Source: an uncultured cyanobacterium (GTDB lineage Bacteria; Cyanobacteriota; Cyanobacteriia; PCC-9006; JAAUQQ01). Taken from it: DNA of 64,000 bases. Shown here piece by piece: positions 2,120 to 7,258 of the stretch. The DNA lies in contig OY970368.1 of assembly GCA_963718615.1 (NCBI GenBank), positions 1,024,001 to 1,088,000 of the forward strand, written 5' to 3'. The notes beneath the pieces were generated by a model. The model was not told the DNA's origin, did no database searches, and saw only the letters and a program-made list of their open reading frames with translations. How positions within the stretch are numbered: position 1 is the stretch's first letter; the number at the start of each line of letters is the position of its first letter. The position numbers and the translations under genes are program-made.

Positions 2120-5100
2120 TCAAAAGGGAACATCATCATCTTCGCCTTCAGCCTCTGTCGAACCCTCATCCGGTTCTAGCAGAATTTCCATGGAGGCTGC
2201 GGTGGCGATCGCACTCTCCGAATCCAGGCTTGCCATCCCCGCCACAAAACCATCATCCGTCACAATCTCTCCATTAAAAAACTGCGCCAAACTCTTCGCC
2301 GCCCGCATCAATTCATTCTCATCCCACGTGGGCCGCAGCGGTGCGACTGCCGCTAGCCTTGATTGATCCGATGTCCCATTGAACGTTGCTTCATTGAACG
2401 CCACCGCGTCGAGGGTCGAGCCCTGAACGCCAACTACCGTCTGAACCGCAGCGCGTGAGACCATCGCCTCAGGCTGGACGATCTCTGACTGGACGAGCGA
2501 CGACGCTGGAGGGGGCGTTAATTCCGGGGGCAGAGCCTGGGCGATCGCGGTGGGTTCATGAACCGGACGGGGGGGAGAAGCTGGGACGGGGGGCGCAGGC
2601 GCAGGCCGCGCAGGTGCTGGTTGCGGAGGTGCCAGGTGAGGAGGCGCAGACTGAGAAGACACCGATTGAGAAGACACCGATTGAGAAGGCGCAGTCTGGA
2701 CCATCCCTTCCGTCTCCACCGAAGGAATAACGGGCTCTAATTTAACTTTGATGGGTTGGCTCGCCACACGGGCAAAGGCGGCTTCAATGGCCGGTAGTTT
2801 GCCTTGAATATTGCCCATCCACTGGGCCGTAATCCCTACGATCGCTGCGGTGCCGGTAAATTTGAGCAACTGTCCTTGCTGCCGCATGAGCATTTGGGTG
2901 CTGCGATACTCGACATTGGCGATCGCCCGCTGCCAGATATCCTCTAAATCAAACTCAGACTGCGGCACGGAATGGGGCTGAGCCGCCTGCGGCACGGAAT
3001 AGGGCTGGGCCGCTGGGGGAGGTTCAACCGTGAGGGCAACCGCTGGATGAGACGCAGGTGCAGAAGAGAGGGATGAAGCGACTGGAACGGCAGGGATAGT
3101 TGCCGCCGCTGGCACCACAGATTGCTGCACAACTGTGGGCGGTGGCGGTGGCGCTGGGACAACTACAGGGGTTGCAGGCGTTGAAGAAACGGAAACAGGT
3201 GCCGCTGATGCAGCAAATCCCCCCGTAGATGGAGACACAACCGGTTGAGCTGACTGCATTGCTGAAGGCAAGAGCCCCATTAGGGTGACCTCCAGCCAGA
3301 GTCGAGGCTGTGTCGTATTCTTAATTTGGACTTCGCTACTCCGCAGATGCTGCTGTCCCCGCAGAATCGTCCCGAGGTCGAGGTGCTGGGCAAATTCGAT
3401 GAGCTGCTCCCAAGTGCTGGGTGTAATAGCAACTAGATCATTGCGCGTGGGTGCAGTTTTAGCAATGAGCAGATCTCGATAGAAGCTAGCGAGATTTTGT
3501 AGAACAATGAGGGGTTCACGGCCTCGGTTCATCAGATGACGGGCGCGATCGAGGACGGTTTCGGGATGGTTGGTGGCGATCGCCTCAACCAAACTAAACA
3601 AATCCCGCTCAGGCACAGCACCCACCAAATCCCAAACGGCATCAATGCTGACGGGCGGAGGCAGCAAGCTCAGTTGGTCCAGCAGACTTTCAGCATCCCG
3701 CAGCCCCCCTTGGGCAACCTGGGCAACCAGCGTCAGCGCTTCCGGTTCAATTTGAATGCCTTCGGCGGTCGCAATCATGCCCAAGTGATCCACCATGGAT
3801 TCAAGCGGAATCCGGCGGTAATCAAAACGCTGACAGCGGGAAATGATTGTGGGTAAGACTCGTTGGGGATCGGTAGTCGCCAGCACAAAGACGACGCGAT
3901 CGGGTGGTTCTTCTAGGGTTTTAAGTAGCGCATTGAACGCCGCACTACTGAGCATATGGCAATTATGCACCAAAAGACCATTAGCTACAAAATTGTGGTT
4001 ATCTTCAACCTCGATATCGTAGACCTGCTCGATTGTTGACCTCTCAACAGAAAGGACCTCCTCGAAACTTGTACTCCATTGAGGGAATTGCGTAGATTTG
4101 ATGGTCTCGCAACCATCTTCGTGCTGATTGAGCTCCCAAGGAGATGTAGTAATAGCGTTTTTGTGTGTTGGATCGCAAGTAAGACTTCGCTTTTGCTGTA
4201 TATCCCAAGCCCGAGAGCCAAGCTGCGACCAGCTCTGTTTCGGATTCTGAAAAGCCTTCTGTGTGGAATTGAATAGCGGGGCTACCTGCAGGTGTGATGG
4301 AGAGTGATCCGTCATCCATGTACCACCATGCTCTTCCCTCTGGAGTGATTCTATCCAGCCAATTCGGGGTGATCCGCTTGCATGTCCCCTCTGGCTTAAC
4401 CACACGGTAGATTTCACACAATTGGGGATGACAGGCGGTGCTACAGCACACAGATAGAGTGCCATATCCACGATTTGTGGCCAGCCGTATCTTGGGCCTG
4501 AGGATAGACAGTCGGTTGGCTTTGTGTTCCATCCATGCTTTTTGCTCTGCTCCGTGGGTCCATGCCAACCGTGGGAAACGGCTGTGGGCATTGGGATAGG
4601 AAATAGAGCCGTCGCCAAGTAGGGTGCCGTAAATGAGTCCTTGGATACAGGGAGAGAGATGGCCAGAACGTTCTGTGAAATTGTCCGTTCGTTTATCCCA
4701 AATTCCATGACCTTTTTTATAGGGATGTCTACCCCAATAGGAATTAATGCTCTGAATCCCTTTTCCCTTCTCTTGCAGAAATTTTGGGATTGCAAGTAGT
4801 TCTCCGCATCCACAGGCACAGAACGGTCGTAGTGATTCTGCTTGCCGAAGAATGGCTTGAAGATCGTAGTCCCGTTGGCCGTACTGATTTCCTCGAAATT
4901 GGTGCCCTGCGGAAAATCGACGCTCTCGCCCATCAACACCGAATTGGTAGATAAGCACCCCACATCCACAGGCACAGGGGATAGTATTCTCGTTTTTTCT
5001 TTTACGTCCTTTGCTGCTACCCATCCCTGATCGGTTCTGATGAGATGATTCCCTGTGCACTGAATTGTGCGGTGGGTGGTTTTAATGAAGAGTGTTTGGC

Positions 5101-5638
5101 GCTCACCCTGATCGAGCCAACGCACAACAGGCTTGTACTCCCATTCTTCTGAGGATTCGTTGTAGCTCAGGACTCGTTGACCCTGAAGCTGAGGATCATC
5201 GATCCTCACTAGCCCATCTTGGGTTTGCACCAAGGTATCGCCCGTCAGGCACTCGTCGATGACATAGACCTTAAACCGACACTGCACTGGTGCAAACTGG
5301 GCTTTCTCGATCAGCTCCCGGATATTGTCCACACCGGTATTGCTCGCCGCATCAATTTCAATCACGTCCAGCGCATTGCCCCGCACAATCGAGCGGCAGG
5401 CTTCGCAGGTGCCACAGGGCTGAGGCGTCGGGTGGTCGCCCGCTTGACAGTTGAGCGACTTGGCCAAAATCCGCGCGCTAGAGGTTTTTCCCGTGCCTCG
5501 GGGACCTGTGAACAGATAGGCCGGCGCGATGCGCTCTTGCAGGATAGCGTTCGTTAGCGTCGTTGCGATCGCCTCTTGACCCACCAGGTCCCGAAACGTC
5601 TGCGGTCGATATTTGTGGTGGAGCGGTTCGTAGGCCAT
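2120..5638 (-). CDS. dnaX: DNA polymerase III subunit gamma/tau, intein-containing
   Basis: MAYEPLHHKYRPQTF, Walker A GPRGTGKT, EIDAASNTG, IDE|intein|CHMLSSAAFNALLKTLEEPP, SRC motif, Pro/Ala-rich linker. Likely start ATG 5638 (ORF track extends to 5704). Confidence 0.97.
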   Translation of the reverse strand: MAYEPLHHKYRPQTFRDLVGQEAIATTLTNAILQERIAPAYLFTGPRGTGKTSSARILAKSLNCQAGDHPTPQPCGTCEACRSIVRGNALDVIEIDAASNTGVDNIRELIEKAQFAPVQCRFKVYVIDECLTGDTLVQTQDGLVRIDDPQLQGQRVLSYNESSEEWEYKPVVRWLDQGERQTLFIKTTHRTIQCTGNHLIRTDQGWVAAKDVKEKTRILSPVPVDVGCLSTNSVLMGESVDFPQGTNFEEISTANGTTIFKPFFGKQNHYDRSVPVDAENYLQSQNFCKRREKGFRALIPIGVDIPIKKVMEFGINERTISQNVLAISLPVSKDSFTAPYLATALFPIPMPTAVSHGWHGPTEQSKKHGWNTKPTDCLSSGPRYGWPQIVDMALYLCAVAPPVIPNCVKSTVWLSQRGHASGSPRIGWIESLQREEHGGTWMTDHSPSHLQVAPLFNSTQKAFQNPKQSWSQLGSRAWDIQQKRSLTCDPTHKNAITTSPWELNQHEDGCETIKSTQFPQWSTSFEEVLSVERSTIEQVYDIEVEDNHNFVANGLLVHNCHMLSSAAFNALLKTLEEPPDRVVFVLATTDPQRVLPTIISRCQRFDYRRIPLESMVDHLGMIATAEGIQIEPEALTLVAQVAQGGLRDAESLLDQLSLLPPPVSIDAVWDLVGAVPERDLFSLVEAIATNHPETVLDRARHLMNRGREPLIVLQNLASFYRDLLIAKTAPTRNDLVAITPSTWEQLIEFAQHLDLGTILRGQQHLRSSEVQIKNTTQPRLWLEVTLMGLLPSAMQSAQPVVSPSTGGFAASAAPVSVSSTPATPVVVPAPPPPPTVVQQSVVPAAATIPAVPVASSLSSAPASHPAVALTVEPPPAAQPYSVPQAAQPHSVPQSEFDLEDIWQRAIANVEYRSTQMLMRQQGQLLKFTGTAAIVGITAQWMGNIQGKLPAIEAAFARVASQPIKVKLEPVIPSVETEGMVQTAPSQSVSSQSVSSQSAPPHLAPPQPAPARPAPAPPVPASPPRPVHEPTAIAQALPPELTPPPASSLVQSEIVQPEAMVSRAAVQTVVGVQGSTLDAVAFNEATFNGTSDQSRLAAVAPLRPTWDENELMRAAKSLAQFFNGEIVTDDGFVAGMASLDSESAIATAASMEILLEPDEGSTEAEGEDDDVPF
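3962..5251 (-). mobile_element. DnaX intein, 430 aa
   Basis: Starts CLTGDTLV after VIDE, has block B TIQCTGNHLI, and ends VYDIEVEDNHNFVANGLLVHN followed by Cys+1. 1290 nt. Confidence 0.95.
4044..5024 (-). CDS. LAGLIDADG-type homing endonuclease overprinted in an alternative frame within the intein
   Basis: Uninterrupted ORF (GTG 5060 or ATG 5024) with two CACGCG motifs, LIYGTLLGDGSI and AWWYMDDGSL LAGLIDADG-like motifs, and C-terminal SMEYK. Confidence 0.85.
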   Translation of the reverse strand: MGSSKGRKRKNENTIPCACGCGVLIYQFGVDGRERRFSAGHQFRGNQYGQRDYDLQAILRQAESLRPFCACGCGELLAIPKFLQEKGKGIQSINSYWGRHPYKKGHGIWDKRTDNFTERSGHLSPCIQGLIYGTLLGDGSISYPNAHSRFPRLAWTHGAEQKAWMEHKANRLSILRPKIRLATNRGYGTLSVCCSTACHPQLCEIYRVVKPEGTCKRITPNWLDRITPEGRAWWYMDDGSLSITPAGSPAIQFHTEGFSESETELVAAWLSGLGYTAKAKSYLRSNTQKRYYYISLGAQSARRWLRDHQIYAIPSMEYKFRGGPFC

Positions 5639-5727
5639 GACATCCGAGCATCTTCCTTCATCACTATAAGCAATGGAAGAAAAACTTCGGCAAGCGAGTC
5701 GCAAGCCTTACAAATCCTCAACTTCCA

Positions 5728-5799
5728 TGGGCGATACTGGATTTGAACCAGTGACGTCCTGCTTGTAAGGCAGGCGCTCTACCGCTGAGCTAATCGCCC
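5728..5799 (-). tRNA. trnV: tRNA-Val(TAC)
   Basis: GGGCGATTAGCTCAGCGGTAGAGCGCCTGCCTTACAAGCAGGACGTCACTGGTTCAAATCCAGTATCGCCCA folds as a cloverleaf with anticodon TAC. Confidence 0.97.
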
Positions 5800-5833
5800 G
5801 AAAACTATCGCTGTTCGCAGCGACTGTAGCAGT

Positions 5834-6643
5834 CTAACACAAAAGAGTGAGCAAACAGAGCAATAAAGCCTCCGTCCATTCCACAACCGCACCGTAGGTA
5901 TCTCCGGTATGGCCCCCCAGCTTGCGGTTAAACCAAGAGCCGGTATTGAAGGCGATCGCAAACCCCCCAAACAACATCCCTAGCGCCAACATCCAATGAT
6001 GCAAATACAGTCCCCCCAAAAGTCCACTGAGACCAACTAGAAGCAATAGCCCCGGCCACAGATCACCCGGTTGAAACTCAGCTTTATGAAATGCCCCCTT
6101 GCCTTCGGGTTTGAGATAGGGATAACGAGCGATCGCCAAGACCTGCCCCCACCGCCCCCAGCCTGCCGCCCCCATCAGGGCTGCGGTTCTGGCAATGGGG
6201 TCTAGGGGAAGCGCCATAAGGGCGGAGAACTTCAGCAGTAGGAGGGCGATCGCCGCCATCACCCCAAACGCACCGGCCACACTATCCGCCATCACTGCTA
6301 GTCGTCGCTTAGGATCCATTACCGACAGGCCATCCGCCGTATCCATCGCCCCATCCAAATGCAGCCCCCCTGTAATCGCAATCCACAGCACAACCACCAA
6401 CGCCGTGCGGCAAATCAAAGGCATTTGTAGCTGAGCTAAACCCAAATCTAATAATCCCAACCCCAGGCCCAACCCCACACCAATTAAAGGGGCAAATCGT
6501 GCAATGCGGCGAAAATCAAAGGACTCAACCTGAGGCAAGGGCAGCGCTGTATAAAAGGTCAAACTCGCGAGCAACTGCGAAACCTCCGTCTGAAGCCATC
6601 GACCGAGTCCTTGCCCTTGCTTCAATCGAGGTTGTCCTGACAT
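5834..6643 (-). CDS. cobS: Adenosylcobinamide-GDP ribazoletransferase (cobalamin synthase)
   Basis: [39 protein letters not shown]; multiple TM helices. Start uncertain (6643-6706). Confidence 0.93.
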
Positions 6644-7258
6644 TTCCTGAGTCTCCTTAGCACGGTTACCCCTGGTTTCTCTGACCGTACTTTTACGGAT
6701 TTTCATAAGTACGCAAACTCAAAATCCCGTAAAACACCCCTAACGCACTGCTTAAAAGGCTTCTAGCACAATTTTTGGCAGCACAATCCAACCCTCAGAT
6801 TAAACCTTCTCCGCATTTTAGCGGAACCGACTCACCTTAATCCCGAGCCATAATGAATTCACGACCCCACAAAGACCTTTGTGACCTAAACTTCGCCCTT
6901 TGGCCTATACGGAGGTGCAACCCCTTTTAAGGGTTTATAGTGAGATAGCATTGAGTTTTGTCCTCATGAGGCAATTCTTTATTGTTTCTCTTCCGTGTTA
7001 TCCCTGATTCCGCTTTATCTTTCCCCCAAGATAGTGCGCTCAGGATTCTGCCCCAAAGTATCAAGCCACGGTATCGAGTCCAGGAATTAAGTCCAAGGAT
7101 CGAGCGAAGTGTTTCGACCAAGCCCCCTTTTCATTGGGTTTTGTTGGCGTCGGGGTCTTGAAACTGTCGGGGTCTTGAAACTTAGGTTTCAGGGTTGCTT
7201 CCAGAGCTCTCTCTTTGCTGCACTGTGTTAGTCGCCGTTCGCGCAACTTCTTCGGCCT

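Follow-up and report, generated by a model that had tools for sequence, protein, structure and literature searches.

The Ssp DnaX intein was reportedly described by Liu and Hu in 1997, and Gorbalenya is said to have pointed out, under the title 'Non-canonical inteins' in 1998, that the nuclease of the dnaX intein is out of frame. Cyanobacterial dnaX inteins with a LAGLIDADG nuclease in the +2 frame are the subject of a preprint by Phillips, DeSimone and Gogarten (bioRxiv 10.64898/2026.09.14.751524, September 2026), which superimposes an AlphaFold3 model on 6X1J and reports that the in-frame centre is disordered, that the distribution is sporadic and that omega depends on the frame in 123 sequences. 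The preprint credits Gorbalenya 1998 with the first proposal and Liu 1997 with the intein, and cites the latter for the splicing reported for the Synechocystis homologue. Here, we analyzed an intein in dnaX, the gene for DNA polymerase III tau/gamma, within a window of 64,000 nucleotides (nt) from an uncultured cyanobacterium (assembly GCA_963718615.1, contig OY970368.1, positions 1,024,001 to 1,088,000); all coordinates below are those of this window. With a probability of roughly 0.88, we interpret it as a copy of the known cyanobacterial dnaX intein in which an I-SceI-type LAGLIDADG nuclease is a separate gene, overprinted in the central +2 frame.

The window copy shares with the published element its host gene, its insertion site (VIDE/CHM, the slash marking the point of insertion), its length of 430 codons, a same-strand +2 open reading frame (ORF) and an I-WcaI/I-SceI-like core, as well as frame-dependent selection and a disordered host-frame centre. 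There is no difference in kind: the window holds another species' copy, and the first-pass annotation, made from the sequence alone, had correctly assigned it to the Synechocystis-type 430-residue architecture. The architecture itself has been described before, and the window contributes a further copy of it; what is new here is the cost of overprinting, counted in codons, and a set of homologous split dnaX-like loci with the same nuclease family. A word search of the main text of the preprint returned no codon-level cost, no split or free-standing forms and no stop-codon count, while a literature search, which covered papers in part, found none describing a fractured or split DnaX with a LAGLIDADG nuclease, and a literature text search for 'sll1360' found no paper.

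Several other systems resemble this locus more remotely. In the fractured genes with GIY-YIG and Vsr-like nucleases described in the accessible text of Dassa et al. 2009 (PMC2677866), as in the window, a separate nuclease gene with its own ATG and stop lies between the intein halves and overlaps the C-intein coding region with its 3' end. Unlike in these genes, 1194 codons of the window host frame run through the insert without a stop, which would yield one DnaX precursor and splicing in cis; neither LAGLIDADG nor DnaX occurs in the text of that article. Actinobacteriophage non-canonical inteins and the ShiLan insertion, in the available portions of the two reports (bioRxiv 10.1101/2025.01.02.630785; PMC11855218), likewise have a nuclease outside the host/intein frame that annotation pipelines overlooked, but their nucleases (Endo VII-like, HNH, antisense LAGLIDADG or Vsr) and host genes are different ones. 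A passage in the former report calls the Synechocystis dnaX nuclease antisense; contrary to this description, the nested nuclease is on the same strand as dnaX in every genome examined. PI-SceI (1vde) and PI-PfuI (1dq3), both among our fold matches, also combine a Hint splicing domain with a LAGLIDADG nuclease at the usual point, but there the nuclease is an in-frame intein domain, whereas the window nuclease would be a separate polypeptide with extra N-terminal Cys-rich modules. Finally, I-SceI and I-WcaI agree with the window nuclease in fold (template modelling score, TM, 0.72-0.76) and in Pfam family (LAGLIDADG_2), but are 19-21% identical to it, and the window nuclease has ~120 extra N-terminal residues with two C-x-C-G-C-G...H modules.

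The dnaX intein and its nested nuclease gene

The dnaX ORF is open upstream to a TTG at 5704 (1194 codons to 2120, minus strand), with the conserved N-terminus at ATG 5638, and the intein is inserted directly after the Walker B D-E. The parts of the host gene are as follows:

2120-5638, minus strand: dnaX precursor including the intein (ORF translation; homologous DnaX N-termini begin at the equivalent Met)
5252-5638, minus strand: N-extein, the last residues of which are the Walker B V-I-D-E (intein-less alleles of relatives read VIDE/CHMLS)
3962-5251, minus strand: intein, 430 codons from Cys1 to His-Asn (translation; Pfam and NCBIfam matches)
4964-5251, minus strand: N-terminal splicing domain, intein codons 1-96 (NCBIfam intein_Nterm; pLDDT, the predicted score of the local distance difference test, 83-92; host-frame third-position wobble)
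4088-4963, minus strand: host-frame linker, intein codons 97-388 (ratio of non-synonymous to synonymous differences, pN/pS, 1.01; wobble at host position 2; pLDDT ~28)
3962-4087, minus strand: C-terminal splicing domain, intein codons 389-430, His-Asn then Cys+1 (NCBIfam intein_Cterm; pLDDT 79-91; pN/pS 0.09)
2120-3961, minus strand: C-extein, first residues C-H-M-L-S (translation)

Cys1 is encoded by TGC at 5251-5249, the terminal Asn by AAT at 3964-3962 and the +1 Cys at 3961-3959, leaving 1290 nt or 430 codons for the intein and a C-terminal splice junction that reads V-H-N/C-H-M. Host-frame profile matches are confined to splicing models at the two ends: Pfam Intein_splicing (E 9.5e-16), PT-HINT, and two NCBIfam models, i.e., TIGR01445 intein_Nterm on intein residues 1-73 (33.4 bits, cut-off 24.5) and TIGR01443 intein_Cterm on residues 410-430 (38.3 bits, cut-off 15.6). 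An AlphaFold2 model of the host-frame intein, built on an 11-sequence alignment, places residues 1-96 and 389-430 in beta strands (pLDDT 83-92) and leaves residues 97-388 without secondary structure (pLDDT ~28). The two ends are predicted from this model to form a Hint-fold splicing domain, and the intein would be excised from DnaX after translation, as is suggested by the intactness of an essential host gene.

The centre of the intein holds a second ORF on the same strand, with these features:

4044-5024, minus strand: nested homing-endonuclease ORF, +2 frame, 326 codons plus stop TGA at 4046-4044
4959-4976, minus strand: first C-x-C-G-C-G module, residues 17-22, with partner His41 at 4904-4902
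4803-4820, minus strand: second C-x-C-G-C-G module, residues 69-74, with partner His106 at 4709-4707
4605-4631, minus strand: first LAGLIDADG motif (LLGDGS), residues 132-140, with Asp138 (46-homologue alignment; Pfam match)
4305-4328, minus strand: second LAGLIDADG motif (YMDDGS), residues 233-240, with Asp237/Asp238 (46-homologue alignment)
4065-4079, minus strand: conserved C-terminal tail M-x-Y-K-F of the nuclease (M-E-Y-K-F here), overlapping the start of the C-terminal splicing domain

The nested ORF, one copy of which is found in its own genome, matches Pfam LAGLIDADG_2 (PF03161) with E 9.9e-19 and 68.3 bits (cut-off 25) over 162 of the 168 profile positions. The first-pass annotation had placed a 430-residue intein with an open host frame at 3962-5251, had seen no endonuclease motif in the host-frame centre, and had attributed two CACGCG peptides, two LAGLIDADG-like motifs and a terminal YK to a second same-strand frame of more than 320 codons. 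Coordinates and frames proved correct, the second frame (+2) runs for 326 codons from ATG 5024 or 338 from GTG 5060 to 4044, and all of the motifs occur in its translation; the hidden Markov model match to PF03161 agrees with the proposed family, and the host frame gave splicing-domain matches at its ends only.

Across 46 homologues, C21, C71, C73 and H106 of the Cys/His modules are invariant and C17, C19, C69 and H41 are kept in ≥90%, while G133, L136, G137 and D138 of the first LAGLIDADG motif and W234, D237, D238 and G239 of the second are invariant. The window nuclease follows the consensus in 56 of the 56 columns conserved at ≥90%. Its structural model (pLDDT 87.9) is a monomeric double alpha-beta-beta-alpha-beta-beta-alpha fold, with I-WcaI (6x1j_A; E 2.2e-11, TM 0.72) and I-SceI (1r7m_A; TM 0.76) as best PDB matches, TM values being normalised to the target over ~218 columns. 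Overall, the nuclease has a pair of small C-x-C-x-C...H modules at its N-terminus and, behind them, a double-LAGLIDADG core of the monomeric kind. By analogy, D138 and D237/D238 would be catalytic, and the invariant Cys and His residues suggest that the N-terminal modules bind metal and DNA. The modules of the window protein matched nothing in Pfam beyond DUF6527 at E 0.39 and no PDB chain in the fold search, and an Atlas search with residues 1-120 gave a best score of 0.77 and no lead; in one split-locus homologue (see below), the modules match DUF6527 with E 1.6e-5 and 25.1 bits (cut-off 23.6).

The window nuclease is 55-61% identical to the nucleases of other cyanobacterial genomes and 67% identical to its best database match, with no entry above 67% in the protein collection searched, i.e., a 326-codon gene inside dnaX is absent from that collection. 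The earlier expectation that gene callers usually miss this ORF fits the window copy in this respect; the ORF is sometimes called, however, and several cyanobacteria have it in NCBI as a 'hypothetical protein'.

We then used the nested protein as a query against 401 sampled cyanobacterial genomes, 31 of which matched, and 30 loci were returned. These comprised 11 dnaX inteins of exactly 430 codons (window included), 7 partly deleted dnaX inteins of 161-339 codons, 9 dnaX mini-inteins of 136-144 codons (a lower bound, because they were found only via the first ~40 query residues) and 3 other, unrelated LAGLIDADG genes. All 11 inteins of 430 codons have a +2 frame without stops over 325-354 codons (325-371 codons in 12 of 12 full-size inteins), while the +1 frame has 18 stops within the intein in the window and 18-35 in the ten others of 430 codons. 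Empty alleles occur among relatives alongside full inteins and mini-inteins, and the insertion site VIDE/CHMLS is kept in 20 of the 23 intein-less dnaX alleles read. The remaining three (L044, L046 and L057) have Val at +1 (D-E/V-H-M), and would therefore offer no splicing nucleophile if the site were invaded.

Two of the full-size forms call for separate mention. L010, with 430 codons, starts with the residues known from the Synechocystis intein. L033, from genome G418, is a 454-codon cyanobacterial intein with a +2 frame open for 371 codons and an overprinted nuclease of 355 residues that has a different N-terminal region; its relatives among database proteins (P0031, P0034 and P0037) have 3-4 C-x-C-G-C-G modules, and the number of modules ranges from 2 to 4.

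The host frame is read through the whole insert. In the mechanism that we propose, the intein would be excised from DnaX once translated, and the nuclease would be produced by internal initiation at ATG 5024, with the dnaX mRNA or an internal transcript as template. It would cut intein-less dnaX alleles at VIDE/CHM, repair would copy the element in, and the element would persist because nuclease loss leads to mini-inteins and then to empty alleles.

As for the host gene itself, spliced DnaX has a predicted length of ~742 residues, and its long C-terminal half (2120-3300, minus strand) abounds in Pro, Ala and Ser and contains short peptides repeated in tandem (e.g., S-V-S-S-Q twice). Directly upstream of dnaX, a 290-codon ORF (5834-6706, minus strand) encodes a hydrophobic, membrane-like product.

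Selection in the two frames and the codon cost of overprinting

The 11 full-size inteins of 430 codons align gap-free over 1290 nt, and Nei-Gojobori pN/pS ratios were calculated from the 55 pairs. In the central region (host codons 76-398), pN/pS was 1.01 when read in the host frame, vs. 0.37 for +2 and 1.32 for +1; elsewhere, it was 0.27 for the N-terminal splicing domain, 0.09 for the C-terminal splicing domain and 0.16-0.18 for the flanking exteins. Column entropy tells where the frames change over: its maximum lies at host codon position 3 until ~codon 75, none of the three positions shows high entropy in codons 76-85, and from ~codon 86 to 390 its maximum is at host position 2, i.e., the third position of the nuclease, before returning to position 3 at ~391. 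Mean identity of the host-frame centre is 43%, vs. 42% in the untranslated +1 frame, and there is no host-frame codon periodicity. Both frames are constrained at the following feature:

4967-5026, minus strand: 5' junction, intein codons 76-95, with ATG 5024 inside it (low entropy at all three positions; alignment)

These substitution patterns show that the +2-frame nuclease is under purifying selection and that the host-frame centre (~290 residues), given a pN/pS of 1.01 and its predicted disorder, is an unconstrained linker that only has to be free of stops, rather than a second functional protein. The linker is probably disordered, as modeled, and dual constraint is restricted to the two junctions, where it covers ~20 codons on the 5' side and a smaller number on the 3' side. 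A frame-specific comparison across cyanobacterial dnaX inteins had been proposed in the first-pass annotation and came out in favor of the nested gene (0.37 vs. 1.01, with the frame open in 12 of 12). The accompanying claim that ~1 kb is double-coding stands insofar as both frames read as ORFs, but not in the sense of two functional products, the host centre being without amino acid constraint and disordered in models.

Two alternative readings of these patterns can be weighed. The host-frame centre could itself be a functional domain, which would make ~1 kb truly dual-function; it is, after all, translated in every DnaX precursor, and the intein is fixed at 430 codons without gaps in 11 of 11 genomes. 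We consider this highly improbable: besides a pN/pS of 1.01, an identity no different from the +1 frame, missing periodicity and a pLDDT of ~28 without secondary structure, many genomes have mini-inteins that lack this centre altogether, and the fixed length is accounted for by the constraint on the nuclease. Conversely, the nested ORF could be a decaying relic, free of selection and open merely because it was inserted recently, as might be supposed from the frequency of deleted and mini forms (16 of 27 dnaX intein loci) and from the closest relative (G403), which lacks 702 nt of the ORF. Yet 12 of 12 full-size forms keep the ORF free of stops at a protein identity of only 55-61% to the window copy, its pN/pS is 0.37, and the window copy keeps all 56 highly conserved residues, so that a relic seems extremely improbable.

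An overprinted nuclease gene has to avoid stops in the host register, and this cost can be counted. To that end, 12 overprinted nucleases (3975 codons) were compared with 9 free-standing homologues (3512 codons, stop-to-stop ORFs):

Stops in host register: overprinted 0; free-standing 108 (7-21 per ORF)
NTG codons: overprinted 163 (4.1%); free-standing 317 (9.0%)
Internal Met: overprinted 40; free-standing 77
Met followed by Ile, Met, Thr, Asn or Lys: overprinted 0 of 40; free-standing 12 of 77

Overprinting halves the NTG codons of the nuclease and bans Met-[IMTNK] from it.

Start of the nested gene and history in the lineage

The ATG at 5024 spans the host Gly-Trp codons GGA-TGG and occurs in each of the 12 full-size forms. 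The window has an earlier possible start, GTG 5060, its first, which is not conserved: in 6 of the 11 other genomes, a +2-frame stop lies between its position and the ATG, the nearest one 2-3 codons before the latter. We therefore take ATG 5024 as the start, giving 326 residues, and of the two starts given previously (5060/5024) retain only this one. Judging from the sequences, internal initiation at ATG 5024 is the best-supported route by which the nuclease would be made. RNAalifold, applied to the region from -75 to +45 around the ATG in 12 sequences, found no consensus structure (-0.08); when the 12 are folded singly, the ATG is paired in ~9, its partner usually being the upstream Asn-His codons, but covariation lends this no support, from which we conclude nothing.

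Some observations weigh against an overprinted gene that starts at this ATG and is maintained by selection. The overlapping Gly codon GGA is shared by all 12 full forms, by all 9 mini forms and by 7 of the 8 that are partly deleted, i.e., also where there is no nuclease, and its conservation can therefore not be credited to the start codon; we rejected it as evidence for the start on the ground that mini and partial forms keep GGA equally, a control that is itself biased since the mini-inteins were found by similarity in the same stretch. Upstream of the ATG, an AGGA-like stretch is found at 10 nt in several genomes and reads AGAA in the window, and no sigma-70-like promoter was found in 3800-5900, where 1.7 were expected. 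The 55 pairs behind the pN/pS values are also mutually non-independent.

Two further explanations concern how the nuclease is made and what keeps it. It might be a frameshift fusion to the DnaX N-extein and N-intein, produced by a programmed -1/+2 shift near intein codon 76: dnaX is a classic frameshifting gene in Escherichia coli, the +2 frame is what a -1 shift would reach, and in the window no stop interrupts this frame over the 20 codons upstream of the ATG. Frameshifting is very unlikely, however, because +2 stops precede the ATG in 6 of 11 other genomes, as near as 2-3 codons, and because no X-XXY-YYZ heptamer is conserved near the ATG; moreover, the homologous nucleases of split loci are separate ORFs. 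The nuclease might also have been domesticated for a host function such as DNA binding or regulation, as in WhiA, and be kept by host-level selection. WhiA chains are among its fold matches, and the similar divergence of intein and exteins between the window genome (G000) and G403 fits long vertical descent. Domestication is nonetheless decidedly unlikely in view of a sporadic distribution (31 of 401 genomes matched), the lack of an intein in 4 of the 5 genomes of the same family whose dnaX junction could be identified, the repeated deletion of the ORF, which argues against a needed host function, and the invariance of both predicted catalytic Asp residues.

Within the window's own family, the search covered seven other genomes: one (G403) carries a 196-codon intein, four have an intein-less dnaX reading VIDE/CHMLS, and two (completeness 93% and 79%) gave weak matches only, with no dnaX junction identified. 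The G403 intein (locus L032) differs from that of the window by one 702-nt in-frame deletion, which fuses the first Cys module to the nuclease tail. What is left of its +2 ORF still spans 93 open codons, with Tyr in place of the module's first Cys. Nucleotide identity between G403 and the window genome is 0.69-0.75 for the intein and 0.76-0.81 for the exteins; both being about equally diverged, recent homing is unsupported in this lineage, and the pattern fits shared descent followed by nuclease loss rather than recent homing into this genome. The first-pass annotation had offered 'ongoing selection or recent homing' as reasons for two intact frames; selection on the nuclease (pN/pS 0.37) holds, but recent homing is not supported, the intein being as diverged as the exteins.

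On the plus strand, antisense to dnaX and just upstream of the nested start, lies a terminator-like hairpin with a T-run (5058-5074; 1 found, 1.9 expected by chance). Antisense RNA to dnaX has been verified in Synechocystis, according to the available text of Georg et al. 2009 (PMC2758717).

Split dnaX-like loci in metagenomes

A protein search and a metagenome scan recovered dnaX-like genes in which the D-E/C site is again occupied by a homologous intein; the contigs reach 528 kb. That N-extein or intein type is carried by 28 loci. In 13 of them, from metagenomes, the gene is split and a nuclease of the family found in the window forms an ORF of its own between the two halves, the frames being combined in various ways (L145-L148, L150, L153, L154, L157, L159, L160, L162, L163 and L166). 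Another 2 are split but lack a nuclease, 6 have a contiguous mini-intein, 3 belong to the overprinted type known from cyanobacteria, and 4 are interrupted by contig ends. The ORFs of the split loci run from N-extein plus N-intein, through a free-standing nuclease with 2-4 C-x-C-G-C-G modules, to C-intein plus C-extein, and the C-terminal half has a Met start (M-A-R-L) and the intein end H-N/C or H-N/S. This is exactly the layout of fractured genes, with the nuclease family of the window.

In a quick tree, 13 overprinted and 9 split-locus nucleases are set apart by one branch (Shimodaira-Hasegawa-like approximate likelihood ratio test, SH-aLRT, 98); the root of the tree is unreliable because the outgroups are on long branches. 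Among the neighbors of one split locus, 6 of 9 have no Pfam family, and the others include Toprim-like, NusG-like and sigma-70 region 4 proteins, a neighborhood compatible with a very large phage. A viral contig scan with the database proteins P0073 and P0068 returned distant nuclease relatives only (23-36% identity), and a genome contig scan for the split type gave 14 loci with matches to the nuclease core only.

Individual loci and proteins vary on this layout. L149 (4986-6886) and L152 (4905-7087) have both intein halves with no nuclease gene between them, and their C-terminal ORF, starting M-A-R-L, is in another frame and overlaps the end of the first ORF. At L166 (3435-5534), the N-terminal ORF of the split dnaX-like gene reaches 700 codons because of a second intein in the P-loop (G-S-G-K/C to H-N/T-T-L). 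The N-extein and nuclease ORFs of L145-L148 are in one frame with one stop between them, and P0073 and P0075, available as protein sequence only, are continuous from the N-extein through the nuclease. P0068 (569 residues) runs from the nuclease Met in frame through the C-intein (H-N/C) into a clamp-loader C-extein; its 3' junction is in frame, and, as read from this protein, its 5' part must be separate. P0054 and P0062, whose contigs measure 2.3-2.6 kb, begin in the host frame, pass into that of the nuclease mid-intein and may be broken alleles or assembly errors.

We tentatively suggest, as a possibility rather than a probability, that the overprinted dnaX intein and the fractured dnaX-like genes are two states of one mobile element. 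Common to both would be a nuclease gene of the I-SceI type, free-standing, equipped with C-x-C-G-C-G modules and located between intein halves. An inserted nuclease gene adds ~7-21 stops in the host register, which an essential gene could survive only by trans-splicing of the halves. The cyanobacterial form would then descend from a split intermediate of this kind that lost all stops in the host frame, at the price of halved NTG codons and a nuclease in which Met-[I/M/T/N/K] is forbidden.

The dnaX intein is a clean natural case of overprinting, in which one frame carries all of the amino acid constraint, the other only avoids stops, and the cost is countable. It also suggests that ~290 linker residues, whatever their sequence, can be accommodated between the splicing halves, and it is a convenient system in which to study internal translation initiation in cyanobacteria. 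The split loci suggest an experimentally testable route between contiguous and split inteins: if the two-state proposal is true, the two forms would interconvert through the gain or loss of stop codons alone.

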